Source: Bdellovibrionota bacterium
GTDB taxonomy: Bacteria > Bdellovibrionota_C > UBA2361 > OMII01
Assembly (NCBI GenBank): GCA_044345405.1
Contig: JBIJBE010000056.1
Coordinates: 1 to 18,919, forward strand
Direction of reading: 5' to 3'
Length of the DNA: 18,919 nucleotides
Shown here: positions 1-16,489 of the stretch, in pieces
Position numbering within the stretch: position 1 is the first letter of the stretch
Layout: every line of letters begins with the position of its first letter
Position numbers and translations under genes: made by a program
The notes under the pieces: generated by a model
What the model was told of the DNA's origin: nothing
The model's database searches: none
What the model saw: the letters and a program-made list of their open reading frames with translations, nothing else

Positions 1-189
1 CCTACAGGAATACCGTCCGTAATATCTGGTTATGGATTCGTAGGTCTTCGGTACATGACATGAAAGGGCTGCCAAAAACTCGAGAGCCTCAAACTCATGA
101 GCAGCTCCGTCGTTAGTGGTGTAGGTGACGATGTCGTCTTGTATTGAGAGTTTCTCTAAGGATAGAGGAGAGCGTTCGATGTAGCGCGC
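1..189 (-). pseudogene. IS91-family (Y2 HUH) transposase fragment, 5'-truncated, running off the left edge
   Basis: Manual minus-strand translation gives ARYIERSPLSLEKLSIQDDIVTYTTNDGAAHEFEALEFLAALSCHVPKTYESITRYYGRYSCR. This matches the IS91/ISCR C-terminal pattern (YxxR-PLSLE-L...LEFLA-L--HVP...RYYG-YS). Similarity stops at ~189, where palindrome A begins. Not in the ORF track. Confidence 0.85.
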
Positions 190-300
190 CTCTCTCCTGG
201 TACCCTGTACCTTTTCAGTGCTAGCTAACTATTCGATTTGTGCTCCGAATTCCGCATGGTTTAACGGCTTGTGAAGGTACAGGGTACTAGCCGAGAGGAA
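186..300. repeat. Palindromic MITE/REPIN-like element A
   Basis: Arms 189-213 and 274-298 are inverted repeats (22/25), with a perfect 14-bp core GTACCCTGTACCTT/AAGGTACAGGGTAC. 189-297 matches 3871-3979 at 107/109. Confidence 0.9.
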
Positions 301-367
301 GTTGTTGATATCGCAGGGTAGCTGAAACTATTTACGATATTCGCTGCGGCGCCCGAGCGGGCTCGAT

Positions 368-417
368 AAAGTAGGGTGTACCAGAGGATGGGGTACCAGA
401 GGATGTTCCAGAGGATG
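368..417. repeat. Lone arm (C) of the element-E palindrome type plus tandem CCAGAGGATG x3
   Basis: AAAGTAGGGTGTACCA at 368-383 is identical to 5235-5250. CCAGAGGATG occurs at 381, 396 and 408. No partner arm is visible; element A sits where it would be expected. Confidence 0.8.
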
Positions 418-430
418 GAGCCGCACTTTC

Positions 431-458
431 TCAAGCATCTGAAGAAACCTGTCGAAGC
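431..458 (+). promoter_or_regulatory. Possible sigma28-like promoter for the subtilase
   Basis: TCAAG-N15-GTCGAAGC loosely resembles TAAA-N15-GCCGATAA and lies ~50 bp upstream of ATG 508. Weak match. Confidence 0.25.
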
Positions 459-507
459 AGAGTTCTAGGGGTTTTGAGGTCCTTAAGGGTCTTGATGGGG
501 AGCAGCT

Positions 508-3500
508 ATGCGCACGGTTACCTATAGGGTATCCATCATACTTTTGGTCGTGCTGACCGCGGCCTTAGTGCCTGTCTCGGCTGGTCTGGCGGCGCCGATA
601 GCAACCCCCACTCCAAGCCAAGTCCAAAAACCTTTTGAAACACATCCTCAGCGGAATCCGCGCCGGGTTCTCGATAATCAACGTCACTTCACCTTCGCTT
701 CGGGAGCCTCCATGGCTCGGGTCTCGTCGATCCTTTCTTCATGCAGAGTCAGCTCGATAAAACACCTGTACTCTCAGAAGGAGGTCACGGTCGACGGCAT
801 CGCCGGGGCTATTCAAGAAGCGCCGGTCTCCAAGGGCGAGGCCCGCAGTCGGGCGGACTTTCCCGAACGGGCGGCTCGAGGAGTCGGGGTGTCTCCGGCA
901 AAGGAGATGGACGCAACCTTTCTCGCCTTCTTTTCCAGCCCTGATGCCGCAAGGTGCGCCGAGGAGACTCTGCGAAAGGAGGGTCTCATCACCAAGTCCG
1001 GAAAGCCGAGCGCTGGGTTTCTCAACCAGAATATCCCACCTCAATCTTTTCAATCGAAGATCTCCGAGACTCCAATACCAAGCTCACTTACCCTCGACCG
1101 CTCCTACATGCGAGCCCTTGAATCATTCATTCCCCCAGGAGTGCGGCTAAGAACGACTCCGATCGTGGCGATTATCGATTCGGGCGTAGCTATCGACCAC
1201 CCCGACCTCCGAGGCTCGGTTTTTATTAATAAGCGGGAGATCCCTCGTAACGGAAAAGATGACGATTTAAACGGTCTTGTGGATGATGTGTATGGCGGAA
1301 ACTTTGCCTGTCAGGAGGCGACTAGTGAGTACCGTTGTATCAAGCCTCCAGTTGATGGCGATGTACGGGACTACACAGGGCACGGTACACATGTTGCCGG
1401 AATTGCCGCGGGGCGGGGTGCGGTGCCTGGTGGAGTTAGAGGTGTTGCTCCTTCAGCCATGATCATCCCAGTGCGTGTTTTTGGGGAAGAGTCAGGCCCC
1501 ACATCAAGTTCGATAGCTTCCGCGATTCGATACGCTACTGATCGGGGCGCTCACGCCATGAACCTATCTCTCCAATGGGGGTATCCACCAACTGAAACGG
1601 ATCCGACGGATCCAATTGTGCACGATGCGATTAGGTACGCTCGAGCGAATGGGTCGGTCGTTGTGTTCTCTGCTGGGAACGACGAAGAAAACGCGTCAGC
1701 CCATCCAGGATGTTCCATCCCGGAGTCCGTGTGCGTCTCAGCGTCACTCGTCTCAAAGGATTCCCTGATTGAAGGACCCAAAAAGCGGGCAAATATCAAG
1801 ATAGCGGATTTCTCGAATTTCGGCGTCCAGGTTGATATCACAGCTCCCGGTGAGGCGGTGTGGTCTACAACTCCCTGCCTTGCGACCGATGAGAACGGCA
1901 ATCTGGCACCAGCCAAATGCTCATTTCCCCAGGACTACTATGCGAAATGGGATGGCACATCGATGGCGGCGCCGCATGTCGCCGCGCTCGCGGCTCTTGT
2001 CGCTGCGGTTAATCCCCGCCTCACTCCGGATCAGATCAAGAGTGTCATTCAGATCACGGCGAGCGACGCGTTTGAGCCAGGCTATGATGCTCTCGGCGGC
2101 GCGGGGCTGATCAACGTGCGCGATGCCCTAAACTACGCCAACGATATTTATCTGGGGCAACGTCCGTTGCCGCCGACAATCAGGGTCCTTGAGCCAATCG
2201 CGGCATCGCAAGCAAGAGAGGAGCAGGTCGTACCCCTTGGATTCGAGGCCTCCTCTAACGGTGAACACACCTACTCGGTAAACGTTCATGACGCGATCTC
2301 CGGAAAAATAAGGAGCTCCGTGACGGGCGGTGCATCTCCCTCACGGCTGTACAGTGTTCCTATAGATACGGCAAAGGTGGGTGGCGGCCTATTCGTGGTT
2401 GAGGTCTCACTATCTGACTCTCGGGGGAACTCAGTCAGCGAGTGGCGAGACCTTGAAATCTCTCCACAGAATCAGTCTGTCGAGATAGAATCCATGGACA
2501 TAGGCTTTAAACCAGATGCTTATACAAGCGTAGCTGTGCCCCTCCACGTTGAAGAATTTGCGGGGCGGCTTTGGGTTCTTGAGGAGGTGGCTGAGGACGC
2601 GGCAGGAGATGAAAAGTGGTATCGGTATCTCCGTGAGCGATTCTTGACTTTTTCCCCAAAAGGCATGCAGAGCACCCCCGCAGCGTTCCTGATTGAGACT
2701 GTAGATTGGAAAATTGACGAGACGTATACACATCGGCTCGCGTACTCAAGGTATCCTGAGCATGTGGGGTTATGGAGCGACCCCAGCCACGGGGCAAAGA
2801 TATCTGGGTTCGCGACCCTAGATACTGTTAATCATCAGATTGCGGAGGATCCGGAAGGGACTGCAAGCCTTGGAGACGGGGACATCAGGGAAATTGCGCA
2901 CAATGCAGATTATTCAGTGGCCATGAAGCATTCAGTCGACCAAAGGGGCGCTTCGCTTTTTATCCGTAATGGAGCCACCGGCCGATTTACCGAGATTAAG
3001 GGAGTATCAGCCAAGGAGTTCCTTCTCGATAGCAAAAAGAAGAGGATAGTGGCCCATTCATCTTTGACGGGAGAGATACTTCTCATCCCTCTCAATACGC
3101 CACGAGTGGCTGAACACCTTTCTAGGGGGGAGTATCCTGTAGAGGAGATCGTTCGCACTCGACTACGGCTTCCTCCGTTCGCCTATCCTGAGCTAGTTGA
3201 TATCGATGGCGCTAACCTTCTTATGACAGGGAATTTGGGCGATCTCACGCAAAATAGACCCCGTGAGCTATTCATTCTCAACCTGGAGACCTCTGCCTCG
3301 CTCCCGATAACCGCTAAGCCCGAGGAATATTTCACAGCGGCTATCCACGGAGAGGACGTGTACTATACGAAGGGGACCAGATTAAGCCCCTTCTTCGGGC
3401 GAAAGCCCGCCTTCATAGCTAGGATGTACTCGTTCAAAAGCGGCGAGGACAAAGCAATTTTGACCAGCTTTTTGCCATACCATCACCGAGGGCAGATGTG

Positions 3501-3639
3501 GATAAAACTTTCCAATGGTATCGTGCTTTACAGGAACAAGAACATTCCAACTTTCACGTTTCAACAGTACCGCCAGAGGGAATCGCAACCTGCACGCCTC
3601 AAAAGTACAGTCAAAGGGAAGACAGATATGCTTGATTGA
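508..3639 (+). CDS. Secreted S8 subtilisin-family serine protease with long C-terminal extension
   Basis: Signal peptide followed by ATPTPS. Catalytic motifs: IIDSG (Asp), HGTHVAG (His), AGN (oxyanion Asn), GTSMAAPHV (Ser). Has the NGKDDDLNGLVDD insert typical of S8A. The C-terminal ~490 aa look beta-rich (Ig-like/propeller, inferred). GGGGAG RBS upstream. Confidence 0.95.
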   Translation: MRTVTYRVSIILLVVLTAALVPVSAGLAAPIATPTPSQVQKPFETHPQRNPRRVLDNQRHFTFASGASMARVSSILSSCRVSSIKHLYSQKEVTVDGIAGAIQEAPVSKGEARSRADFPERAARGVGVSPAKEMDATFLAFFSSPDAARCAEETLRKEGLITKSGKPSAGFLNQNIPPQSFQSKISETPIPSSLTLDRSYMRALESFIPPGVRLRTTPIVAIIDSGVAIDHPDLRGSVFINKREIPRNGKDDDLNGLVDDVYGGNFACQEATSEYRCIKPPVDGDVRDYTGHGTHVAGIAAGRGAVPGGVRGVAPSAMIIPVRVFGEESGPTSSSIASAIRYATDRGAHAMNLSLQWGYPPTETDPTDPIVHDAIRYARANGSVVVFSAGNDEENASAHPGCSIPESVCVSASLVSKDSLIEGPKKRANIKIADFSNFGVQVDITAPGEAVWSTTPCLATDENGNLAPAKCSFPQDYYAKWDGTSMAAPHVAALAALVAAVNPRLTPDQIKSVIQITASDAFEPGYDALGGAGLINVRDALNYANDIYLGQRPLPPTIRVLEPIAASQAREEQVVPLGFEASSNGEHTYSVNVHDAISGKIRSSVTGGASPSRLYSVPIDTAKVGGGLFVVEVSLSDSRGNSVSEWRDLEISPQNQSVEIESMDIGFKPDAYTSVAVPLHVEEFAGRLWVLEEVAEDAAGDEKWYRYLRERFLTFSPKGMQSTPAAFLIETVDWKIDETYTHRLAYSRYPEHVGLWSDPSHGAKISGFATLDTVNHQIAEDPEGTASLGDGDIREIAHNADYSVAMKHSVDQRGASLFIRNGATGRFTEIKGVSAKEFLLDSKKKRIVAHSSLTGEILLIPLNTPRVAEHLSRGEYPVEEIVRTRLRLPPFAYPELVDIDGANLLMTGNLGDLTQNRPRELFILNLETSASLPITAKPEEYFTAAIHGEDVYYTKGTRLSPFFGRKPAFIARMYSFKSGEDKAILTSFLPYHHRGQMWIKLSNGIVLYRNKNIPTFTFQQYRQRESQPARLKSTVKGKTDMLD

Positions 3640-3657
3640 ATCGGAAGAAATCAGTTC

Positions 3658-3690
3658 CCTCCCAACTATTTCTCTCAGAGACCGCGCAGT
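3658..3690 (+). repeat. 33-bp dispersed direct repeat, copy 1
   Basis: 31/33 identical to 6908-6940; ACTATTTCTCTCAGAGACCGCGC (23 bp) is exact. Confidence 0.85.
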
Positions 3691-3699
3691 CTCGCTCCA

Positions 3700-3794
3700 C
3701 TGGTACAGGGCAACTCTGGACCGGCTCATTTTTCTGTGTGGTTTTCCCTTGTTGTGCGGTTGAGTCAGTGAGATCGAGAGTTGCCTTGTACCAG
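3700..3794. repeat. Palindromic element D
   Basis: CTGGTACAGGGCAACTCT (3700-3717) and AGAGTTGCCTTGTACCAG (3777-3794) are inverted, 17/18. Confidence 0.85.
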
Positions 3795-3851
3795 AGAAGG
3801 GGAGCCTTTGCAGGTTCCTTAATTGTATCGGCCTGTTAGGCAGGTTTAGGT

Positions 3852-4005
3852 GCGCCTCTCTCCTGGTACCCCTCTCTCCTGGTACCCTGTACCTTTTCAG
3901 TGCTAGCTAACTATTCGATTTGTGCGCCGAATTCCGCATGGTTTTACGGCTTGTGAAGGTACAGGGTACTAGCCGAGAGACTAGCCGAGAGGAACTAGCC
4001 GAGAG
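3852..4005. repeat. Palindromic element B (second copy of A) with terminal tandem duplications
   Basis: Core 3871-3979 equals element A with 2 substitutions. CCTCTCTCCTGGTACC x2 (3855, 3871) on the left; ACTAGCCGAGAG x3 (3968, 3980, 3994) on the right. Confidence 0.9.
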
Positions 4006-4126
4006 ACGGGTGTCCCTGTTCCACCTTTTTCGAGGGGGCAAGGTTTTAACCCCCTTTCCTTAAGACGAATACAGGAAGTGCCGTTAGTCCGACAGTAGAG
4101 CAATAGAGTTGTGCCGGGATTGCGAT

Positions 4127-4985
4127 ATGCAAATCACTACGTCGTGCGGGATCGTAGCCAAATTGCGCTCTCTTACCCTCTCTCTTTCTTTAATACTTTT
4201 AAACGCACAGCCTGCTCATGCACAGCCTGCCCGCAATTCGGCAAACAATAGCGTCACCAGTAGAGCTACTCCTACACCTGTGCCTACAGCTGGGTTTTCT
4301 CTCTCGTACAACAGTTGTCTAGCTCCAATGTACGAATCAATCAGTGGAGGCGTGCCTTATACGGGAGTGTGCGAAAGGGAGTGGGTTAGTGGGCAATATG
4401 TGTGCCGACATTTTGCGCGCGATCTGCGCGGCAATTCTTAGTAATAGCAGTAATCAGGAAATGGGGTCTGGTTGTTGGATCCTGACGCTCAGTCCGGACT
4501 ATTCAAGTGTCAAGAAGGTTATAAAAATTGCCGGCTGCGTCGCTAGCGAGTGTGGCATTAGTTGGTTAAGCGCAAGAACGGCGGACCTAGCGACGGGCGG
4601 AGACAAAGTCGCTGACTTCGTAAGTAGGGCAACGTGTTCTGAGAAGGAGCGTAAATGTGTGCACGATTTCGTTGGCACTGGGCATGCCATAAATATTTTC
4701 CGGTCGGGAGGTAAGGGATTCCTAGATAGATCCGGGGAGGTAACCTTTATGGCAGTTGAACCGCAGTATCAGGATGGTGGTAGTGCTGTTCTGTGTACTT
4801 GGACACAGAAAACGCTTGAACCGGTTCTTCCTGATTGGTGTAAAGAACATATTGCTAAGGATACCTATCCAGGGCAGGTCGCATGCGGTATCCCGTATCA
4901 ATTTACAGTGTCGGACCTAGATACATATGTGGCTCACGTAACTAGGCAAGATAAAGTGTATGGGTCCGAAACTTCCAAGCCCTAG
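4127..4985 (+). pseudogene. Frameshifted secreted Cys-protease-like protein (papain/transglutaminase-like fold, similar to MOA Agglutinin_C-type)
   Basis: ORF 4109-4441 gives the signal peptide, ATPTPVPT and YVCRHFARD. ORF 4344-4985 continues with CAAILS...GHAINIF...AVEPQ. The Cys..FA / GHA.N / EPQ motifs are joined by a frame change at ~4421-4427. ATG 4127 is the likely start. Confidence 0.65.
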
Positions 4986-5101
4986 GGATAAAGGGGACGC
5001 TACTGCTCTGTAGAAAAGCCCTGAATCAAGCATTAATTGCCACGTTATGACAAAGCGATCGGAGGAGCAGCTCTCGATAACGACCATGAGTAGATCGTGC
5101 C

Positions 5102-5278
5102 CCCTGGGCTCTTGGTCCCTGGGCTCTTGGTACACCCTACTTTGCCAGGGTCGGCCGAGCTCTTCAGAGCCGCAACGCAAACTGGAAATGGCTTCAGCCA
5201 TCCTGCTATATCAAACTACTTTAGCTACTTTTGAAAAGTAGGGTGTACCAGACGGATAGGGGACCAGACGGATAGGGG
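5102..5278. repeat. Palindromic element E with tandem duplications on both sides
   Basis: Perfect 16-bp inverted repeat TGGTACACCCTACTTT (5128-5143) / AAAGTAGGGTGTACCA (5235-5250). CCCTGGGCTCTTGGT x2 (5102, 5117) and ACCAGACGGATAGGGG x2 (5247, 5263). Confidence 0.9.
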
Positions 5279-5308
5279 AGTTGTGAAATAGGAGGGGGAT
5301 CATATGAA

Positions 5309-5714
5309 GGATAGGATGATCGATCGCTTTTTTGTAAGTAGCTGAACTGTAGTAGGCAGCCGCTACTTGTACCGCCGAGATGGGTCAAGCGAGGGTCGAA
5401 ATCAGTTGTCTGTGGCTCCACGCTATGGTTTCAATCCTCCAAAGAGAGCGTGGAAGGGCGAGCTAAGTCGCCAAAAATGGCGTGAGACACGCACTCCTGC
5501 CTTTCCGTGACAGAGGAAGCGGGTTTTAGAAGTCATCAGGAGCCGGCTCAAACGAGTCGTGCGAGGGAATTTCATCGATAGCCTCCACGGCATCGATGAA
5601 TTTGGGGATTTGAGGAGGTGCTTGGAAGTCAGGGATTCCTTGAGCCTTCATGATGTCCTTGATTGAGTGCTGGTCTTGGATGAAGGAGATAATGCGCATC
5701 TGTGCTTTACATTT
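5309..5714 (-). mobile_element. IS91-family remnant: transposase 3' end, downstream non-coding region and oriIS-like end
   Basis: The minus strand ends ...AAAAAAGCGATCGATCATCCTATCC (5333-5309), ~200 bp past the transposase stop. This resembles IS91/ISCR oriIS termini (GCG..GA...TCCTAT), compared from memory. Confidence 0.7.
5526..5714 (-). pseudogene. IS91-family transposase extreme C-terminal fragment
   Basis: Manual translation: KCKAQMRIISFIQDQHSIKDIMKAQGIPDFQAPPQIPKFIDAVEAIDEIPSHDSFEPAPDDF*. This fits the (CP)KC---MRIISFI-D---I--I...PP tail of IS91/ISCR transposases. An in-frame TGA lies immediately upstream at the junction. Confidence 0.8.
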
Positions 5715-5715
5715 T

Positions 5716-6294
5716 CAGGTTGTTAATCCAACAGCTACCCCGACTAACACGCCGACTGCTTTGCCAACACGCACGCCGACAACTACCCCAACTCCGATGC
5801 CAACGCATACCCCTACGCCCACAGCAACGCCGACCCCCGAACCTTTTTGCCAGTACAGTGAGTGGAGCGCTTGGAGTGGTTGTTCCAACCAGTGCGGTTC
5901 TGGTACCAAGCGGCGCCGGCGTTCAGTGATATCATCATCAGGCACCATCGCGGGTGGGTGCACACAAACCGAAGAGGTTTCGGCTTGCCGAAGCACTACG
6001 GAGTGTTATGTAGAGGCGACGATCAAATTCACTTGGCAAGGAGCCACGATGGACCTCCAATGTCCGAACGGCGGAAGTGAGGTCCAGCGGTCTGGATTCA
6101 GCGGCACCCAGGAGTCGTGTAGGTTTGACAAATTCCCGAGCAAGAGAGGAGGTCGATGGACCTGCGTGGCTGGTAACGGCACCTGCTTAAATCAGTCTCC
6201 GATTGTGAGCAGTCCAAAAGGCCGTTCGGGGACATCTTACCGACGTTCCGGTACCTGTGACGCAACGATCTGGATACGATGCGAAGAGGATTAA
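5716..6294 (+). pseudogene. 5'-truncated gene: Pro/Thr linker + thrombospondin type-1 repeat + Cys-rich C-terminal domain
   Basis: PT repeats at ~5728-5841. TSP1 motif CQYSEWSAWSGCSNQCGSGTKRRRR...C...C...C at 5848-6006. The first 22 codons of ORF 5650 are antisense IS91 sequence, so no native start or signal peptide is present. Confidence 0.75.
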
Positions 6295-6399
6295 TGCCCT
6301 AAATCGGCCCGAAGCCTTACCGTCTTTCTCGGGAAGGCATGAGCTTCTCGGGTGGGGCTCTCTGAAATCCAGAGAGCTCTACCTCATCCTTGCCGGTCA

Positions 6400-6492
6400 C
6401 TGGTGCAGGGCAGCTATTTCGCGTTCGTCTTTGGGATTCATATCAATTCATTGGCTCGCTGTTTGGCTCTCTGGAGAGTTGGCCTGTACCAG
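6400..6492. repeat. Palindromic element F (degenerate, same type as D)
   Basis: CTGGTGCAGGGCAGCTAT (6400-6417) and AGAGTTGGCCTGTACCAG (6475-6492) are inverted, 14/18. Arms resemble D; length 93 vs 95 bp; interior unrelated by eye. Confidence 0.7.
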
Positions 6493-6501
6493 AGCATGTG
6501 A

Positions 6502-6871
6502 GCCACTGAGCGTGTCGCGCAAAAGCTTACCAAGAATATGCCGCCTCTACTCGGCTCACCAAGCTCATTGATCTTTGTGCTGCGCTCGCAGCGTGCCTTG
6601 CTCGCGTGTGTTGAGTTTGCGCGAATAGATGGTGAGTGGCAGGTACTCCATCTGCTATGTGTCGACGCAGAGCAGCGATACGACAACTTTATCGCGTATG
6701 CTATGGAACAGTTTTTTGATGTTTCAGGGGCTAAGCGGGTGGTGGTACCAGAAAGTAACCTCTCTCGCGCGCTTGTCCCTGCTCTTGAGCATTGGCGAGC
6801 TGGCTTACACGCTAACGCAGGACGTCGTTGTGGGGGCGTGCTTTCCCGTGGTGTGGCCTATTGATGGGTAA
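6502..6871 (+). pseudogene. Gene fragment, possibly GNAT-like fold, probably 5'-truncated and perhaps frameshifted near 6790
   Basis: The frame opens just after element F (ATERVAQKLTKNMPPLL...). IFVLRSQRALLACVEF...WQVLHLLCVD has a GNAT-like strand pattern. An alternative C-terminus IGELAYTLTQDVVVGACFPVVWPIDG lies in another frame. Confidence 0.35.
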
Positions 6872-6889
6872 TACCGTTGGTTAGCGATA

Positions 6890-6959
6890 GGCTAGCAACC
6901 CCTACGTCCTCCCCACTATTTCTCTCAGAGACCGCGCGGTAGAGTAGGGAAAGGTAGCC
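6890..6959. repeat. Imperfect hairpin between convergent genes enclosing copy 2 of the 33-bp repeat (6908-6940)
   Basis: GGCTAGCAACCCCTAC...GTAGGGAAAGGTAGCC arms; the interior matches 3658-3690. Confidence 0.6.
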
Positions 6960-6984
6960 GCAGTTCAGAGAACCGAGAGATTCT

Positions 6985-7446
6985 CTATTCCCCCGCACAC
7001 ACGGTGTTGTACATGACCATGCATGAATTTTTCTGCCAAGGCGCTGGCAACTGGATGCAGGTCCTCCATAGTCCGGCGCATCCCGCTTTTCCGAAGGTTG
7101 TGCAAAGAAGACCACAGGCGGAGAAAGCTTTCGAGTAATCAACTCCTTTGGCATTGTCGATGCATTTGTGTACACATTGTAGGCACGTGCCTCCGCCAGG
7201 AAATGCTACCGTTTTAGCTTTAGCACAGGCGTCACACATCGCGAGCGAGGGTGATCCTTCGACAGGTACGCACTCGGTGAATGAATCTTGGTCTGCTGTT
7301 GGAGATGGTGTTGCTGTCGCTCGTGCCGTTGGATACACAGGTGGTAACGCATCGGCTGAATTGAAGACTAGGCATGAAAGAATAATGACCAGGAGTATTC
7401 CTCTCTTGGGGCGGATGTAGCGATTTGCTGTTGCTCGTGTTTGCAT
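6985..7446 (-). CDS. Small secreted Cys-rich hypothetical protein
   Basis: Likely start MQTRAT (ATG 7446). Basic-hydrophobic signal peptide ending ADA, then an ATATPSPT linker and repeated CxxC/CxxxC spacing in a ~95-aa domain. Confidence 0.75.
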   Translation of the reverse strand: MQTRATANRYIRPKRGILLVIILSCLVFNSADALPPVYPTARATATPSPTADQDSFTECVPVEGSPSLAMCDACAKAKTVAFPGGGTCLQCVHKCIDNAKGVDYSKAFSACGLLCTTFGKAGCAGLWRTCIQLPAPWQKNSCMVMYNTVCAGE

Positions 7447-7644
7447 CTCAGTCTCGTCTAAGCTGTTACTATCCCTCGGTGATTCGGACCCACCGTCCAA
7501 CGAACCTGTTACAGGAGTCGTACGGATAGTTCAAAAACTTTAGCGCAAATGAGTAGTTGCTATGTAGACCCCTAAAAGAATCCCTCTCCGCCCGTAAGTA
7601 ATCGAAGTGATTGCAATGAGTAATTACTTTGAGAGGAGAGGGAT

Positions 7645-8688
7645 ATGGGAACACCCAGTTACGAAGGTAAGCAGGTGTATATGGGGTTGGATGTTCATCG
7701 TGAGTTTTTCGTTGCAAGTTGTATCTGTGACGGGGTTGTCGTTAAGCGGTGCCGAATGCCTGGGACAGCGGAGGCTGTTATCTCGCTGGTGTCCAAGGAG
7801 TTTAGTGGGGCAAGCGTTCGCGCGGCGTACGAGGCAGGGTATAGTGGTTTTTGGCTGTACCGAAAGCTCGTGGCGGTAGGGATTGACTGCATAGTGGTTC
7901 ACGCTGCGTCGATAGAAGTGTCATCACGTGACACCGTGAAGACGGATAAGCGGGATTCGTTGAAGATAGCGCAGCAGCTGGCCGCTGGCCGGTTGCGGGG
8001 CGTGAGGGTTCCGACCGAAGAGGCGGAACAGCGACGACTACTGACCCGCACTCGTGAGCAGCTCATGAACAAGAAGCGCCGAGTGATGGTTCAGATACGG
8101 ATGCGGTTACATTATTTCGGGCGGTTCCCTGAGAGCATTCAGCGACGGGTAAAGCTTCAAGATGTTGAGGATATTTTAGTCGGGCTTGAGGGCGAGCTGC
8201 AGCGCACGATTGGGATGCTGCGTGACGAGTGGGTTGAGCTCGCAAAGAGAATCAAAGAGATCGATCGATTGCTTGTAGAGCAAGCCAAGGAAGATCCGCT
8301 GGACGCAGCGTATCGGAGTGTCCCAGGAGTTGGCCCGCTCATATCGCGTATCCTCTCAGCGGAGCTTGGCGATATGAGTCAATTCCGAAACGAGCGTGCG
8401 TTATTCAGCTTCACTGGATTAACCCCGAGTGAGTACTCAAGTGGCGGACATATCTGTCGCGGGCACATTTCTCGCCAAGGCAACACTCGATTGCGACATA
8501 TGTTGGTTGAAGCCTCGTGGAAAGCGGTAAGAAAAGACCCCGTTATTAAAGAATATTACATCAAGCTCTCAGAGCGAATCGGCAAGAGAAAGGCGATCGT
8601 TGCGGTCGCGCGTAAGCTTGCCGGGCGCATCAGAGCTGCATTGAGGAAGCATGAGCATTATACCTTAGACTATAGAGCAGCGGCGTAA
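7645..8688 (+). CDS. IS110-family DEDD recombinase/transposase
   Basis: GLDVH, YEAG and KTDKRD (DEDD RuvC-like); SVPGVGP; GLTPSEYSSGG (catalytic Ser loop); GHISRQGN; AIVAVARKL. AGGAGAGG RBS. Appears intact. Confidence 0.97.
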   Translation: MGTPSYEGKQVYMGLDVHREFFVASCICDGVVVKRCRMPGTAEAVISLVSKEFSGASVRAAYEAGYSGFWLYRKLVAVGIDCIVVHAASIEVSSRDTVKTDKRDSLKIAQQLAAGRLRGVRVPTEEAEQRRLLTRTREQLMNKKRRVMVQIRMRLHYFGRFPESIQRRVKLQDVEDILVGLEGELQRTIGMLRDEWVELAKRIKEIDRLLVEQAKEDPLDAAYRSVPGVGPLISRILSAELGDMSQFRNERALFSFTGLTPSEYSSGGHICRGHISRQGNTRLRHMLVEASWKAVRKDPVIKEYYIKLSERIGKRKAIVAVARKLAGRIRAALRKHEHYTLDYRAAA

Positions 8689-8699
8689 GAAGTAGAGCA

Positions 8700-8940
8700 G
8701 TGAGTTGTGGTAGTGGAAGGAAACCAAGAGTAACGTAACTTTGATTTCAGGTGTGACCCCGTCGATTTGCCTGTGTCTGCGAAAGCATGCACGATTGCTA
8801 GTTTGAGGCGCACCCCTTTTGTAATTTACGAAAAAGCATCATGTGAGCGCTGCATAGACAGTGACCACGAATAGCAGGTTGTTACGCGAAAGGTCCCTTT
8901 AGGTTTTTGAAGGCAACTCTACGCCAACGGTTTTAGTGAA
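8700..8940 (+). ncRNA. Putative bridge RNA/seekRNA (boundaries approximate)
   Basis: ~310-bp non-coding end downstream of the transposase. It contains GATTTGCC (8764-8771), the reverse complement of right flank 9001-9008; CATAG (8853-8857), matching the right end; and ATAGCA (8871-8876), the reverse complement of left end 7558-7563. Confidence 0.65.
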
Positions 8941-8998
8941 TACTTCGATTCTTTGGATCGGACAGGATTTTTTGTCGTGACGTTGACAAGTCTCATAG

Positions 8999-10622
8999 CG
9001 GGCAAATCCTTAAAGATGAAACGTACCAGTTAAGCTCCGTGATCCCCTCCCAGCAAACCGAGACACCCGAAGCGCCGCAAACCTATCGCGCGATCGTTCT
9101 CAACAACATAAATCACGAAGCCTTGCCAAACAGCATCAAATCCGGACTCTCTCGCTACGTAAGAGGCGGTGGTGGCCTTATTATGGTCGGTGGCAACGAG
9201 AGCTTTGGTCTCGGCGGTTACATCGGCTCCTCGATTGAGGAGATCCTGCCGGTGCGCTTACTGAAGCCACGCCAGGAGCAGAAGCGCCTCAACGTGGCCG
9301 TCCAACTCATCATTGATAAATCACGAAGTATGGCGACCGATGACCGCTTGGAGTTCGCCAAAGCCGCCGCGCAAGAGGTGCTACGAAACCTAAAGAACGA
9401 CGATCTGATTGGCGTGATGGGATTCGACGAAGGTCCTTTTAAAGTTCTCCCCGTGTCGCCCGTAAGCGCCGTCCGAGACACCGCGATTACTCGCATCAGC
9501 CGCCTTTTTCCATCAGGAGCGACAGCGCTGTACCCCGCGCTTGAGGAGGCGGAGCTCGACCTTTCCAGCGTTCCCGCCGGGCGCAAGCATATCATCGTCC
9601 TCACCGATGGAAAGCTACCAGACGCTGGACCAAAATATCTCGGCACCCTCAAGCAGCTCCGCATGCTGGGAATTACCCTCTCAACAGTTATGGTTGGTGG
9701 CGATGTAGGTGATGGATTCCTGACGCAGATGGCCGAGCTAGGTGGTGGCTCGTTCTATCAAACAAGTGACCCAAGCAACCTCCCCAAGATCTTCCTCTCT
9801 GACGTGCGCGTCGCTGGGGGCGAGCGAACGATGAAAGAGGAGCCCAACCTGCCCGTGCGAAACGGGCCCGATCCTCTCGTAAGCACATCACTACGCTCGT
9901 TTCCAAATGTTCGTGGAATCGTTCAAACGGAGCGTCGCGACAGCGCTAACACCGAGCTCGTGGTTTCCGACCAGGAAGGCACCTATCCACTCCTGGCGTC
10001 ATGGAAGGTAGGAGAGGGGAGGAGTATCGCGTTTACGTCAGATGCGAATGGTCGTTGGTCATCCCGGTGGATGCGCTGGGACCAGATCCGAACCTTCTGG
10101 TCGGATCTCATTGACTCCGCGCGCCCTAAGACAGTCGGCAAAGAATCGACGATTCCTTTCGATATGCGTTCGTCGGTCGAAGGCGGTGAGGTCGTTATAG
10201 ACCTCACCCTTTTTGAGGAGATCGGCTCAAGTAGCGTGTCGGCCTCGATTGTCACTCCCGGCGGCGCCACCCGCTCCGTTTCGTTCAATCCGGTACGACG
10301 AGGTCACTATCAAGCGAGACTCGACCACGCCATGGCCGGTACCTATAAAACCACCGTGGCGATCGACGACGCGAAGCTACCGGAGGTAGCGTGGACACTA
10401 TCGGGGGAGTTGTTTGGTGAGGTCTCTCATCGAAAACCAAACGTGTCGCTCCTCTCGGACCTAGCGCTGCGCACAGGCGGCATGATGGATCCCTCGCCAG
10501 AGGACATACGTCCCTATTTGAAACAGAGCGCCACGAGACGACTTTTCAGTCACGATCTGCTCGTTTTAGCGCTTTTGTTCCTCTTTTTGGAGGCCGGAAT
10601 GCGCGCTCTGCCGCGTCGCTGA
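8999..10622 (+). pseudogene. vWA + glutamine-amidotransferase-like (DUF1355-type) membrane protein, 5' end cut by IS110
   Basis: YVRGGGGLIMVGGNESFGLGGY (GATase-like), IIDKSRSM MIDAS, VLTDG, GEGRSIAFTSD..RWS..W, C-terminal TM helix. The frame stays open upstream of GTG 9039 into the IS end (GQILKDETYQLSSV) with no RBS or signal peptide. Confidence 0.8.
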
Positions 10623-11866: not shown

Positions 11867-14800
11867 GTGACTGAAGCGACGTTAGAGAATAGAACACAAC
11901 TAGAGCATACGCGTCTCGCCTCGCCCGAGTCGACGGACTCCTCGTCCTCGCTCGAGGGGAAAACGGCGCCAGGTGATAGGGAGCGATCTCTTGATATCCT
12001 GCAGGAGCGCTACACTCGCGAAGTTAAGGCGTTCGACGTGATGATGCGGCAATGTCACCGGATCGTCCCCTCGGAACACCCCACTCACCAACACCTTCAG
12101 TCCGTACTAACACAGGCCGCGACCATGCTGGGCCTCGAAAGCCCCGGGGTGAACCTCGTAATCTTCGCTCGATATCCATATGAACGATTAGAGAAGATAG
12201 TCGACGCGGGCAATATAGCTCCATACGTTCCTGAAGCCTTCGTCAATCCCGCTACCGGAACTGTGTACCTCAACGTCGCTCTCCTCGACGCTTGTAAATA
12301 CAACTCCGACCTCATACATAGCGTCATGTATCACGAACTCGCTCACATGGTGCTTCTTCAAGGTCTTCGAGAAGAGCTAACCCAATCACTCTCCGATCCG
12401 CTCGGCAGGTCCTTTCGAGACTATGAAGTGGAATATCACTGCGATCGTATCGCCGCGCTTATCTCCTCCAAACGAGGCGAGGACCCTCGTAGTATAAGCA
12501 AAGCTCTTGAAGCGATCGAAGCCGCGGAGAAGGCGACCATAGAGTCGACACGACTAGCGTCAGAGGTCGCGTGCTCAATCGAGCTCCCACTTATCAGCAC
12601 TCATCCAGCGACTCAACGGCGAATGCGCGCGAATGAACTGGTGTCTCACCAGATGCCTGTCGCTCGAAATGCGCTGACCTCGGCGCCCACCCTTCAAAAC
12701 ATCGATGTTTCCACGATCCCGGTAACGAGACCGTATGGAAACCTAATCCGTCGTGATAATTCGAACGGCAATCAGTGTGATACATTAGATGGACTCACCG
12801 CCCTAGACGCCGACAATCGTCCCCGGCAGCTCCTCCTCACCCCGGATGATTACCGTCGCTGGTGCGGAGAAGCCGCCAGCGGCGATGATAATGAGCTGAT
12901 TCCGCGCGAAATACGAACTCTCCTCCGCGATCCCTCTGTACTCCATGTAAGCGATTGGCTGCGTGAATTCGCCCAGCTCGCCAGCACGGGAACCGAAACG
13001 CTCGCGGATGTCATTGATGAGTTCAACCAGGAATTAGAGAGCGTTTCCCTCGACGACCTCACCACAATACTTACGCGGATAAACCCAGCTCGAGTGCTCG
13101 ACAACTCAGATGAGCCCAATCTGCAGATTGAGCCGTATACAACGCTACCGTTTTGCCTCTCACCACTTGTCAATCGCTTCATTCAACTGAAAACCGAGCA
13201 GGGCGCCAGCTCCCTGGAATGCCTATCAGACCTCATCAAAATCGCGCAGGAGCATCAACGCGTATTTGGAGGGAGCATTCTGTTATCGGCCGCTGATGTT
13301 CCGATACTGGCGATCGACATCTGCGGAAACGGCAGCGCTTCTGACCACGAGAAACTTGTTGGACTTATTCTGGGAAATAGCGATCTAAAAGAAGCGCTCA
13401 TATCCAACGCGACCGTCAAGCTAGCCGATGCTCGCCCATCATACCTTCGAGAGACATCCGAACTGATTAAGCCACTGCTTGAGCGCTACAGCCCGTTTAG
13501 AGTCACTCAAGACAATAAAATACTTTCGCGTCACTCGATGTGCGCCGAGATCGTTCCCCTTTCGACGGACGACGAGATTAACCAGCCAACAGTACTCAGG
13601 CGTGTGCCGGGAGGAGAGTTCGCCATAAAGACGCTGGAACGTCCTGGCAATCTACCCCCGATCTCCCTGATAGAGTTCGGAGACGCTCCCCTCAGCGAGC
13701 GTAATATCGAGGTTATAAAGCAAACTTTTCTGGCCCGATTCACCGATCCATTTCACGCCAAGCTCCATTCTACAACAATCTCCAACGCTCTCCAGTCGAT
13801 GCTGACTAACGTGACGCGTCATTCAGAGGATCTCCTTACACTCACTTCTCCCTCCCGAGAGGAGCGCGAAACATTCGTGAAAAACGATCTTGCTACGCTA
13901 TACGCGCAGGGCGGCACCACCACCTCCGTAGCTCGTCGATTCGGTCGAGAACTAACCGAGACCAAGATCCGCGAACTCTTCGCCGCGACGTCGATTGAAG
14001 CGCAAATCTTTGACATGGGCGACGACGAAACAACCAAGGCTTGGATAGGCGTGGGACGCCAGGGTTACTCAACCACATCATACACCCGCCCTGAGAGCTC
14101 ATCATTTGATATCTTTCAATCCTCTCTTCTTTTTAATGACCTGCATCGCTCTCACTTTGACTCGATCTCCCCCGGCGTCGAAAAGGCCGCGCTCTTGCTC
14201 GATAGCTACCCAATTAAGGTGCTCGAGCGCGATCAACTTCTGTGTGTCGCGCTCGGATATCCCGCGCTCGAGTGCCTCAACGACATGAAGCCAGTGGAGA
14301 TCACTATCGCCGCGGAAACCGACATTCATGTCCTTCATATCTTACGCGAGGGGCTAAAAAACCAAGGCCTCGCCCAAGTGGCGGAGGGGCGGCTACATGA
14401 GATCAGCACCCAGGATAGGGACTCGTTTCTCAATCACCCAGCCATCGTGGCATTGAGAGCTTCTATTCTCACTAACCTTCCGGAAGTCGTCCAGGACGCG
14501 GCGATACGAGACGAGCGTTTACTGGCGATCCTGTCGGCGTTCACCAGCCCCTCCCGGGAGCGTGATAAATATCTCCGTGAATTCATCGACCACGCCAACT
14601 CCCGAGCCCTCAAGGAAGGTCTTGGCGCGCTCCTCGCGGACCCAATCGTGTCGCGACTCTCTCCCGATATAGGCACCAAGTCACGCGTCTCTCCCGACAC
14701 TATCCTGTCTCTCATCTCATACCTCTCGCCATACGACAAAGCGCAAGCGCTCCTCTACTTCATGGGCTGCAGAAAGTTTGAGTCTCCAACCGCGACGTGG

Positions 14801-16489
14801 CTTCTTGAGGGATATGACGTGCGTACTCCGCTCTCCGAGCTACAAGCGCGGCTCTCCCTTGAGGCGCCAACGGGTAAGCGCATCAGCGAACGCTGGCTAG
14901 GCAAAGAAGTGAAGCATCAATTTGACCTACCTGACTGTTTGGTTCGAGCTCAAAAGACATTCGGCATCTCCGTCGCGACCGCCGAAAATCTTCAGGGCTC
15001 GCTCCTCAATGAGCGCGCCATCACGGACCTCCTTACTACCATTCTTTACGGAGACTCGGGCGTTGTCGCTGACGACAAGGTTCGAAAAGAGTTCTTCAAA
15101 CTCGCGGGTCGAACCCTGATTCAAACCAGCGATCGCTTCAAAGAGCTGGATCCGCAACGGAGAAAGGATCTCTCGAAGTTTGTGGCGTTCGCCTTTGAGC
15201 AGTGTCCGAGTGAGAAGCTACCAACGGTGATTATGCGCGTATGGGAGGCGACGAAAGGGGAGACGGAGCAGCTTCCGTCCGTGGTCGCCAGTATCCTTAC
15301 CGGACTCGGCCCAGCATTTGTCAAATTCGGCCAAAAGCTCGCCACGCTCAACATCGAAGCTGAGTACAAGAAGGCGTTCAGGCAGTTATCCAGCGAAAAT
15401 AAAGAGATCGACTCCACGCTCGTATACCACAACACCGAGGCGATCTTTGGTGGTTCGGTCTTCGAGGAGCGGGGCAGTGGTCGCAAATTAGGCGAGGGTT
15501 CCATGGCCGCGACATTCGTCGCGCTGCCAAAAGGAGAAAGCGAGCCACGAGCGATTAAGATTGTGCACCCATTTATTGAGCAGGAGATTGAGGCCGACTG
15601 CGTCTATATTCAGAAGCTCGTCGAATACATTAACACTCATAAACCATTCGCCTCGCTGACGCTGCCCAAAAATACGGCTACCGTCATCCGTCAACAATTG
15701 ACTCATCAGATCGACACCGAACGTGAGATAGCGAACAGCCACGCGCTCGCGTCCGCGCTGCGCCCTGGCACCGATACCGTCGACTTCCGAGTCGCGAAGA
15801 TAGACAATCGATTCTCCACCAAGGGTGTAATTGCCGCGGAGTTTCTCCCCGGCTATGAGCTCGATAAACCCGAGATAGAGGCGCAGGGGTACTCGAGCGC
15901 CGCTATAAGAAATGAAGTCGGTCTCGAGGCCCTTCGACTCCTTCTAACAGCTCCCGTCTATCAATCTGACGTCAACCTTGGGAACTTCGGCGTTCTCAAA
16001 AACCCAACGAACGGAAAGATTGTGGCGCATGACGGACGACCCACGGTTGTCTGGTATGACGCCGGCGCGGTCGACCCCATATCGACGAACGATCAGAAGC
16101 TACTTCTTACGATAATCAAATCCGCCATGAAGGACCCCTCGTCTCTTCCGGGCGAATTAAGCAAGCTTGTTAAAGATTCTGACGGAAGAGAGGCGGAACT
16201 TACAGTCATCTGCGATGACCTCAAAAAGGAATGGGCAGGTACGGGCTCATTCGCCCCGAACGTAATTAAGGGACGATTTGAGCGCTTCTTCGACAAAGTC
16301 AGCGAAGCAGGGCTTGAGATCGAGGAGCGCTGGCTTATCGTCGCGAACACGATCTCGATGGTCGCGCCCCTTCTTGATGGCGTTTCAAGCGATCGCGTGA
16401 GGAGTCTCGTGGTCGAGGCGCTCAAACATCATAAAATGCTCTCCTTTACTGAGCGAGCGGCGCTTGCTGCGCTTCCGTGGATCAGCTAA
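11867..16489 (+). CDS. M48-like zinc metallopeptidase fused to a C-terminal UbiB/ABC1 (AarF) atypical kinase
   Basis: HELAH (12332-12346), EYHCD and STHP give the M48 pattern. GPAFVKFGQKL (KxGQ, 15308-15340), LGEGSMA, AIKIVHP, QSDVNLGN (15962-15985) and YDAG give the UbiB pattern. GGGAG RBS before GTG. Confidence 0.88.
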   Translation: MTEATLENRTQLEHTRLASPESTDSSSSLEGKTAPGDRERSLDILQERYTREVKAFDVMMRQCHRIVPSEHPTHQHLQSVLTQAATMLGLESPGVNLVIFARYPYERLEKIVDAGNIAPYVPEAFVNPATGTVYLNVALLDACKYNSDLIHSVMYHELAHMVLLQGLREELTQSLSDPLGRSFRDYEVEYHCDRIAALISSKRGEDPRSISKALEAIEAAEKATIESTRLASEVACSIELPLISTHPATQRRMRANELVSHQMPVARNALTSAPTLQNIDVSTIPVTRPYGNLIRRDNSNGNQCDTLDGLTALDADNRPRQLLLTPDDYRRWCGEAASGDDNELIPREIRTLLRDPSVLHVSDWLREFAQLASTGTETLADVIDEFNQELESVSLDDLTTILTRINPARVLDNSDEPNLQIEPYTTLPFCLSPLVNRFIQLKTEQGASSLECLSDLIKIAQEHQRVFGGSILLSAADVPILAIDICGNGSASDHEKLVGLILGNSDLKEALISNATVKLADARPSYLRETSELIKPLLERYSPFRVTQDNKILSRHSMCAEIVPLSTDDEINQPTVLRRVPGGEFAIKTLERPGNLPPISLIEFGDAPLSERNIEVIKQTFLARFTDPFHAKLHSTTISNALQSMLTNVTRHSEDLLTLTSPSREERETFVKNDLATLYAQGGTTTSVARRFGRELTETKIRELFAATSIEAQIFDMGDDETTKAWIGVGRQGYSTTSYTRPESSSFDIFQSSLLFNDLHRSHFDSISPGVEKAALLLDSYPIKVLERDQLLCVALGYPALECLNDMKPVEITIAAETDIHVLHILREGLKNQGLAQVAEGRLHEISTQDRDSFLNHPAIVALRASILTNLPEVVQDAAIRDERLLAILSAFTSPSRERDKYLREFIDHANSRALKEGLGALLADPIVSRLSPDIGTKSRVSPDTILSLISYLSPYDKAQALLYFMGCRKFESPTATWLLEGYDVRTPLSELQARLSLEAPTGKRISERWLGKEVKHQFDLPDCLVRAQKTFGISVATAENLQGSLLNERAITDLLTTILYGDSGVVADDKVRKEFFKLAGRTLIQTSDRFKELDPQRRKDLSKFVAFAFEQCPSEKLPTVIMRVWEATKGETEQLPSVVASILTGLGPAFVKFGQKLATLNIEAEYKKAFRQLSSENKEIDSTLVYHNTEAIFGGSVFEERGSGRKLGEGSMAATFVALPKGESEPRAIKIVHPFIEQEIEADCVYIQKLVEYINTHKPFASLTLPKNTATVIRQQLTHQIDTEREIANSHALASALRPGTDTVDFRVAKIDNRFSTKGVIAAEFLPGYELDKPEIEAQGYSSAAIRNEVGLEALRLLLTAPVYQSDVNLGNFGVLKNPTNGKIVAHDGRPTVVWYDAGAVDPISTNDQKLLLTIIKSAMKDPSSLPGELSKLVKDSDGREAELTVICDDLKKEWAGTGSFAPNVIKGRFERFFDKVSEAGLEIEERWLIVANTISMVAPLLDGVSSDRVRSLVVEALKHHKMLSFTERAALAALPWIS

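Follow-up and report, generated by a model that had tools for sequence, protein, structure and literature searches.

The first 6.5 kb of a contig from a Bdellovibrionota bacterium raise the question of what kind of DNA punctuates an array of genes for secreted proteins with long, GTAC-ended palindromes, and which enzyme may act on them. The contig (JBIJBE010000056.1 of GenBank assembly GCA_044345405.1) was analysed over its whole length of 18,919 nucleotides (nt), called the window hereafter; it is contig C25 of a genome of 3.59 Mb in 85 contigs with 55% guanine + cytosine (GC). A preliminary description, made from the letters of the window alone, took the six palindromes (elements A to F) for hairpin recognition sites of an undescribed cassette-shuffling system with the recombinase encoded elsewhere. 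The answer reached here is a different one: the palindromes are very probably non-autonomous miniature elements, similar to REPINs (doublets of repetitive extragenic palindromes, REPs) or to dimers of terminal inverted repeats (TIRs), which belong to long Y1 HUH transposases resembling the REP-associated (RAYT) and TIR-associated (TIRYT) tyrosine transposases and encoded elsewhere in the genome. The bases of this reading are sequence relationships, catalytic motifs, the predicted fold, the layout of gene plus arms, the distribution of copies, the lack of target duplications and the presence or absence among species; mobilisation in trans, a single-stranded hairpin intermediate and the position of cleavage are inferred.

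Arms of the palindromes and of a transposase family

All six elements are present where the preliminary description had placed them (Table 1), and they fall, as it had said, into three arm types each occurring twice, namely T1, GGTACCCTGTACCTT (elements A and B), T2, GGTACACCCTACTTT (C and E) and T3, GGTACAGGGCAACTC (D and F). The spacers between paired arms are 55-90 nt long and conserved within each arm type, and the limits of the elements lie about 10-15 nt outside TGGTAC. Over a length of 109 nt, A matches B at 98% identity, and the flanks of the two are unrelated. The arms of F deviate from T3 by one mismatch on the right and three on the left. Besides the outer limits just given and the decay of F, two details of the earlier picture have to be changed. 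Element C, listed there as a lone 16-bp arm, constitutes the right-hand ~95 nt of a T2 element (298-393) and has 80-90% identity with copies on C40, C45, C82 and C83 (C-numbers denote contigs of this genome and G-numbers the other genomes compared); its arm is the same as the right arm of E and its left part is cut off exactly at the end of A. Element A abuts an IS91 fragment on its left and the truncated T2 element on its right. Moreover, the interiors were thought to differ except in A and B, but the T2 copies, E included, have a common conserved interior of ~80 nt, E being 70-78% identical to the rest.

As single-stranded DNA, elements A, B, D and E are predicted to fold, with z-scores of -4.9, -4.5, -2.9 and -3.5, respectively, in agreement with the hairpins proposed earlier, and one T2 copy on C45 folds within the same range (-2.9 to -4.9); F has no excess folding energy (z -0.4). 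Throughout the genome, GTAC-started inverted 14-mers 40-220 nt apart form 18 pairs, compared with 4 in the reversed genome, and T1-T3 make up 13 of the 18. In the window to the right of 6490 no arm was found at up to 3 mismatches, which bears out the reported absence of the elements beyond the IS110 element. The GC content of the island (50-55%, compared with 53-58% to its right) is uninformative. An Rfam scan of the window gave only a below-threshold match to mir-306 on D (both strands) and one match to sX7, which were both set aside as chance matches to a hairpin.

T2-like arms (AAAGTAGGGTGTTCCAG) were found at several contig ends, where they adjoin a repeated gene whose product has the HUH motif. 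A jackhmmer search over all open frames of the genome gave 20 matches, 11 at full length (317-332 aa) and 9 as fragments, several of them at contig ends, and the alignment of the 11 paralogs has invariant H60 and H62 (the HUH motif) and Y121-x3-N125-P126. The NCBIfam family REP_Tyr_transpos matched all three proteins tested (E 6.6e-8, 6.5e-7 and 4.2e-19), Pfam Y1_Tnp passed in one of them (32.6 vs. 23 bits), and NCBIfam transpos_IS200 reached 24 bits against a cut-off of 55. In a PDB profile search 4er8, the TnpAREP of E. coli, ranked first (E 1.5e-6, positions 1-143). The predicted structure of the transposase (mean pLDDT 83) led to the same protein in a fold search (4er8_A, E 3.2e-6, TM-score 0.68, root mean square deviation 2.3 over 138 columns), followed by the TnpA proteins of IS608 and ISDra2. 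Both kinds of match involve only the first ~140 residues, and for the C-terminal ~190 aa there was neither a Pfam family nor a PDB match in the fold search. The class 2 signature Y-x3-NP is present, no helix-turn-helix (HTH) match was obtained and the predicted model shows no large core insertion.

Inverted arms stand on both sides of 10 of the 11 intact paralogs, and the order of a full-length element is an arm (often in 2-8 tandem copies), ~45 nt, the transposase gene, ~200 nt and the inverted arm; the eleventh gene (C43) has no downstream arm in the 433 nt up to the contig end. The arm type tracks the protein clade. Genes of the C73/C23/C50 clade are flanked by CTGGAACACCCTACTTT, which is 16/17 identical to T2, those of the C39/C40/C51 clade by CTGGTACAGGCCAACTT, which is 15/17 identical to T3, and the C18 copy by CTGGTGCCAGGCTCTTT, which matches a fourth doublet type, CTGGTGCCAGGCTACTTT, found on C22 and C40. 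The C22b/C67/C52/C69/C26 clade has arms of the form CTGTA(G/C)-NNN-GGGCTACTTTT, a small GTAG-tagged palindrome to which no doublet type was assigned and whose pattern has 41 matches in the genome and 0 in the reversed control. The enzyme which the preliminary description supposed to be encoded elsewhere is thus likely to be an HUH single-strand DNA enzyme on other contigs. The same description placed the palindromes outside the REP/RAYT world, which is not supported, for arms with 1-2 differences in 17 nt from T2 or T3 flank long RAYT-like Y1 genes.

By eye, the C22b/C67/C52 arms are self-complementary and GTAG-tagged (GTAGCC-G-GGCTAC), and the T1 arm is built likewise, of CTG, a 5-bp stem with a 3-nt loop (GGTAC-CCT-GTACC) and TTTT, and reads GTAC, not GTAG; the T2 arm contains GTAG and is not self-complementary, and T3 has neither feature. 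Arrays of the GTAG-type arm with 7-9 tandem copies ~24 nt apart occur at C52:37981-38151, C57:89-303 and C26:119107-119286, a number well above what a single end of a transposon should require. They lie directly upstream of genes of the C22b/C67/C52 clade, except that the C57 array is at the contig start and no gene is visible there.

The transposase family is found in 40 of the 41 genomes searched, with all 24 of the genus and 15 of 16 other families of the order, and there are 2-32 matches in each genome that has one. A database search gave 536 proteins at E <=1e-5, named "hypothetical protein" or "RayT" by their sources, and nearly all of the named records with the family are metagenome-assembled genomes of Bdellovibrionota. 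In relatives, CTGGAACACCCTACTTT also brackets genes of the C73 clade, at G020:C250, G011:C375 and G015:C221, with six tandem upstream copies in G015. Furthermore, when the upstream and downstream flanks of 53 loci in other assemblies of Bdellovibrionota were compared, their best inverted 16-mer matched at 14 or more of 16 positions in 30 loci, compared with 7 in a direct-repeat control, and the top inverted matches were the same arm motifs. The T2 arm occurs in 13 of 14 genus genomes with a C73-clade gene (at least 57% identity) and in 3 of 21 without one, a tally that includes arms beside the gene itself and in which related genomes are not independent. Of 35 genus genomes, 9 have T1 arms and 16 have T2 arms, the genome of the window being the richest in each, and a copy of element D with 93% identity is present in another species (G024:C126:32493-32610). 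When window 1-7000 was compared with the 35 genus genomes, only the IS91 fragments and D were found among the matches listed, and these gave no empty site for the island of the window. Inspection, without a statistical test, showed no target-site duplication next to A, B or any of the T2 copies that were aligned.

By analogy with TnpAREP and IS200/IS605, the arms would pair on single-stranded DNA to give a long hairpin with its 5' foot preceded by CT, the enzyme would nick beside the arms to form a 5'-phosphotyrosine link, and the segment would be moved or copied without duplicating the target. Doublets with no gene would be moved in trans by a paralog with matching arms, and copies would accumulate in dispensable accessory DNA and beside other mobile elements, which would bring them to the boundaries of genes and gene fragments.

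Copies, islands and neighbouring elements

Copies were searched for by iterative blastn seeded with the complete elements. Simple arm scans (316 hits vs. 235 in the control with 3 mismatches allowed; 18 vs. 8 with 17 nt and at least 14 matches) were too noisy or too strict and were replaced by it. The genome was found to have 31 doublet loci on 11 contigs: 9 in the first 15 kb of C22, 5 (6 elements) in the window, 5 in the first 12 kb of C40, 2 each on C21, C45, C67 and C77 and 1 each on C48, C57, C82 and C83. A neighbour within 5 kb is present at 26 of the 31, compared with 2.3 on average and 11 at most when loci were placed at random 2000 times. The copies and the clustering that the preliminary description had expected are therefore found, and the uniform dispersal or lack of further copies that would speak against it is not, so that the concentration of copies in accessory DNA can be taken as genuine. 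In the islands the elements are intergenic and located at most gene boundaries, as had also been described, and several start 56-143 nt past a stop codon. The orientation of T2 is mixed (+ + - - + - along the C22 island, + and - in the window), and the arms are decayed in F and in three C40 copies. At G046:C127, T2 doublets occur in a comparable island, whose small genes are of the secreted or lipoprotein-like kind.

Table 1. Elements, genes and mobile-element fragments of the window.
Feature	Position	Strand	Description
IS91-family (presumed) transposase gene, internal fragment	1-189	-	ends at left end of element A
Element A	186-298, core 189-298		T1 doublet of two inverted arms, ~60-nt spacer; arms 25 nt, 88% complementary
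Element C	298-418	+	5'-truncated T2 element; interior and right arm 298-383, arm 368-383; then three tandem outer end units CCAGAGGATG at 381-418
Secreted subtilisin-like (S8) protease gene	508-3639	+	1043 aa; Pfam Peptidase_S8, E 6.9e-50
Element D	3695-3799		T3 doublet, begins 56 nt past the protease stop codon; arms 3695-3720 and 3774-3799, 85% complementary
Element B	3852-4007, core 3871-3979		T1 doublet; outer end unit in 2 copies on the left (3855-3886) and 3 on the right (3969-4006)
Two overlapping open frames	4109-4985	+	110 and 213 aa; without Pfam family
Element E	5101-5278, core 5128-5250	-	complete T2 doublet, orientation opposite to C; arms 5128-5143 and 5235-5250, 16 nt, 100% complementary; outer end unit doubled on both sides (5101-5131, 5247-5278)
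IS91-family (presumed) element, 3'-terminal fragment	5306-5714	-	starts 28 nt past the end of element E
Thrombospondin type-1 repeat protein, C-terminal remnant	5650-6294	+	Pfam TSP_1
Element F	6400-6492		decayed T3 doublet, relative of D
IS110-family element	7554-9008, transposase 7645-8688		bounds the island of the window
1540-aa open frame	11867-16489		weak M48 peptidase match (residues 121-162) and ABC1 atypical-kinase domain (residues 1209-1422)

Direct T2 pairs enclose single cargo units at two places. On C45 a 5.37-kb insert (67631-73001) begins with a T2 element 11 nt past a stop codon, contains T2, a 1038-aa gene, T2 and a 312-aa gene, and separates two convergent genes, which lie 13-182 nt apart without the insert in G010, G020, G044 and G014; a different insert of ~960 nt occupies the same intergenic site in G015. 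The 5.37-kb insert has a T2 element at one border only. Its right edge is formed by a dispersed repeat of ~200 nt with copies 76-88% identical (C45:72793-72994, C40:12035-12247, C40:15737-15949, C84:8573-8756 and many genus genomes). On C77 two genes that lie between a direct pair of T2 copies form a unit with 97% identity to DNA of G019. In G024, G020, G011, G019 and G001, no arms border the homologs of the cargo genes from C45 and C77. In addition, C22:5758-6279 and C22:9171-9692 are a 522-bp duplication with 99% identity; the left edge of the second copy (C22:9171) falls precisely where a T2 doublet has its right end, and the duplicated gene is truncated there.

The 110-aa frame of the window opens with a hydrophobic stretch that resembles a signal peptide, by eye only. 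The thrombospondin remnant scores 25.1 bits for TSP_1 (cut-off 21.6) and 40.1 for TSP1_spondin, just below the cut-off of 41. Its repeat follows a Thr/Pro-rich linker, and this bacterial gene has lost its 5' part to the adjoining 3'-terminal fragment, a repeat that recurs at the contig ends of C22, C51, C52 and C73.

That fragment and the one at the left end of the window are parts of what we take, from the translation recognised by eye, to be an IS91-family (Y2 HUH) element. The left fragment is 75% identical to C51:7137-7357, inside a frameshifted gene, and has copies 80-87% identical across the genus. The IS91-like element is present in many copies, also at C51:6284-7900 and C49:16860-17305, and intact copies place both window fragments ~135 nt apart in one gene. 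IS91-like ends or fragments lie 0-55 nt from a doublet at window positions 189 and 5306 and at C77:14509, C57:6281 and C45:71139; the IS91-like element may target the doublet hairpins. The IS110 element has copies 92-93% identical in several other species of the genus, which suggests recent spread between species. A separate family like miniature inverted-repeat transposable elements (MITEs), with the end motif CCCAACTATTTCTCTCAGAGACCGCGC, is represented in the window by single ends in the same orientation at 3658-3690 and 6908-6940 and elsewhere by inverted pairs 160-290 nt apart (C22:93573/93733, C40:644/807, C48:2112/2399 and C83:4127/4308), and one copy is found immediately upstream of the arm array that belongs to the C52 transposase.

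The ends of the doublets are peculiar in that outer segments are repeated in tandem, 2-3 times at five element ends in the window. In the genome, the first 9 bases counted outward are repeated 10-23 nt beyond at 14 of 79 arm ends (5 of the 14 in the window), compared with 41 of 4988 when all ACC|AG sites are taken. The unit of this stutter spans from inside the GTACC core to the element tip, its number differs between A and B despite their 98% identity, and the junction between units is CT|GG when seen on the other strand. TnpAREP is described as cleaving at CT beside its hairpins (PMC8266576). By analogy, one inference is that the tip may be the nick site and that copying may restart there by microhomology at CC/ACC.

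The window is also present in sequencing runs labelled as lake water metagenomes. A 3353-nt contig of run X17 covers window 298-2328 and, after 379, has one 13-nt end unit more than the window; on the other side of 298 it continues leftward into a match to an inverted T2 arm (31 letters, same depth) and not into element A. We read this, on the evidence of contigs and not of reads, as a strain with a complete T2 element and no A. Run-contig joints at 404->3661 (which would delete the protease gene), 298->3694 and 5251->5307 depend on 24-27 matching letters at one side and were left out of account, as were parts of the window that had no contig cover in some runs.

Rival readings

Could the palindromes still be sites at which a dedicated recombinase assembles, excises and reorders gene cassettes, like the attC sites of integrons? 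Such a system would suit the presence of elements at almost all boundaries between genes in three islands (the window, C22:1-16 kb and C40:8-12 kb), the high proportion of loci with a close neighbour, the single cargo units between direct T2 pairs, the breakpoints that coincide with elements (IS91 fragment/A at 189, A/truncated T2 at 298 and the duplication edge on C22) and the close likeness of the C77 cargo to a segment in another species. However, no tyrosine recombinase (PF00589) was found in the window, C22:1-17 kb or C40:1-13 kb, the only three of the genome being on C49, C7 and C85; the orientation of the elements is mixed; the cargo homologs in five other genomes lack arms at their borders; the C45 insert has T2 at one side only; self-contained transposons end in arm types closely similar to T2 and T3; and the ends CTGGTAC/GTACCAG are unlike the attC core sites. 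The cassette system proposed in the preliminary description is thus highly unlikely. It is unlikely, too, that the palindromes are immobile hairpins, either neutral remnants or kept by the host as terminators or mRNA stabilisers, roles which are reported for REP-type elements (PMC3733652). The intergenic position of all of them, the short distance of several from a stop codon and the decayed arms of F and the three C40 copies fit with this possibility, but near-identical A and B stand at unrelated sites, D has its close copy in another species, the distribution over the 35 genus genomes is patchy, the number of end units differs between strains, the catalytic residues are kept in all 11 intact paralogs and the Rfam scan gave only a below-threshold miRNA match. 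That the doublets are mobilised by the adjoining IS91-family or IS110 elements instead of the RAYT-like proteins is hardly probable. IS91-family pieces do adjoin doublets at five places and IS110 bounds the island of the window, but the IS91-family end (5306-5345 and the contig ends named above) has no CTGGTAC arm, the arms bracket Y1 genes in many genomes, and the adjacency is equally explained by IS91 targeting the hairpins or by shared accumulation in junk DNA.

The reading of the palindromes as miniature elements of RAYT-like transposases has its own difficulties, and the following points weigh against it. Movement, an excision circle and enzyme activity were not observed directly. The three REP_Tyr_transpos scores (32.6, 29.3 and 68.9 bits) are all below the curated cut-off of 80, and two of the three transposases tested have no Pfam match at all. 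The transposase is present in many copies and the doublets are few (~33), unlike in classic REPIN/RAYT systems. The doublet arms are also not quite those of the genes: between T3 and the nearest gene-flanking arm there are 2 differences in 17 positions, and T2 doublets have GGTAC where most C73-clade gene-flanking arms have GGAAC. The conserved T2 interior is not similar to the sequence just inside the ends of full-length elements, so the doublets are not simple internal deletions. No intact paralog of this genome has the exact T1 arm, and none with it was found at 20 T1-arm loci (17 from eight relatives), so that no partner enzyme was found for A and B; a RAYT-like frame is present at just one of the T1-arm loci of relatives, L040 (G044), where it is ~1 kb away from the arm. 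Furthermore, clustering in islands is not predicted and needs an extra assumption, that is, local hopping, targeting of other elements or tolerance of junk DNA.

A further-reaching proposal is that the enzymes and doublets build the accessory islands themselves: cleavage at the arms and strand transfer would join unrelated DNA and mobilise genes between doublets (T2-gene-T2, as at C45 and C77), and the stutter would be a scar of repeated nicking and re-initiation at the tip. This is improbable. If it were true, island building would lead to hairpin-punctuated arrays of secreted-protein genes at intergenic hot spots, and a stutter scar of the outermost 10-16 nt would indicate a replicative mechanism not described for Y1 transposases.

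Place among known systems and significance

The name TIRYT was given by Di Nocera et al. (2013) to RAYT-like genes that have terminal inverted repeats on both sides, the whole unit being a TIRtron, with repeats which occur also as singles, dimers and clusters; the same authors set out the gene-plus-repeats layout of REPtrons and TIRtrons (PMC3733652). The elements described here are similar to TIRtrons in having a RAYT-like Y1 HUH gene with terminal inverted repeats and not classic GTAG REPs, in repeats that constitute moderately abundant families of singles, dimers and clusters, and in several paralogs, each with its own repeat type, in one genome. They differ in the arms (CTGGTRC-N7-9-ACTTT, not the GGGGWSAS of TIRtrons), in the C-terminal region, which has ~190 aa that match nothing in Pfam or the PDB where a DnaA_C/HTH-like tail would stand, in the presence of at least 11 intact paralogs in one 3.6-Mb genome, in ends multiplied in tandem up to 8-9 times and in the occurrence of the family, so far, only in uncultured freshwater Bdellovibrionota. 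In the classification of Quentin et al. (2018), class 2 is defined by Y-x3-NP and TIRYTs belong mostly to subclass 2.1; the long subclasses are 2.1, with an HTH-type tail, and 2.3, of 325 aa, multi-copy, with two core insertions and found in Chromatiales/Alteromonadales (PMC6006769).

Classic RAYTs are single-copy genes, vertically inherited and accompanied by hundreds of REPINs (PMC5581495). With REPIN-RAYT systems the present family shares TnpAREP of E. coli (4er8) as the closest solved relative of its N-terminal domain, the class 2 Y-x3-NP signature, a gene between its own inverted repeats, non-autonomous inverted-repeat doublets that fold into one long hairpin with CT at the stem foot, and, in the C22b/C67/C52 arms (CTGTAGCCGGGCTAC) and the T1 arms, small palindromes as in REPs. 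It differs in its 11 intact and 9 partial genes, patchy among species, with few doublets, in T2 and T3 arms that are not self-complementary and spacers that are long (55-90 nt), and in three proteins that score below the NCBIfam RAYT cut-off. The Y1 HUH fold and motifs, the many-copy, IS-like behaviour and the lack of target-site duplication are shared with the IS200/IS605 family (IS608, ISDra2), but TnpA of the IS200 type has ~130-155 aa and the protein here is over twice as long, and the hairpins of IS200 are unlike each other, just inside the ends and on one strand, whereas the ends here are inverted copies. Integron attC sites are likewise imperfect palindromes (~60-140 nt) which form single-stranded hairpins between promoter-poor accessory genes in arrays; here, in contrast, there is no adjacent integrase, the orientation is mixed, the end motifs are others and the arms double as transposon ends. 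The elements differ from MITEs of DDE transposons in that no target-site duplication was seen. In the literature searched, no paper was found on TIRYT, TIRtron or RAYT elements in Bdellovibrionota.

The family is an undescribed long RAYT/TIRYT-like group within the known REPIN/TIRtron kind and not a new gene-cassette system. Puzzling palindromes thereby become an identifiable mobile-element system with a testable candidate enzyme, and the long uncharacterised C-terminal domain and the end stutters offer handles for biochemistry. For genome annotation, the arms flag accessory DNA and assembly breakpoints in Bdellovibrionota metagenome-assembled genomes. The family is abundant in freshwater Bdellovibrionota and is intermediate between domesticated single-copy RAYTs and true insertion sequences, and it therefore bears on the origin of REP/REPIN systems.

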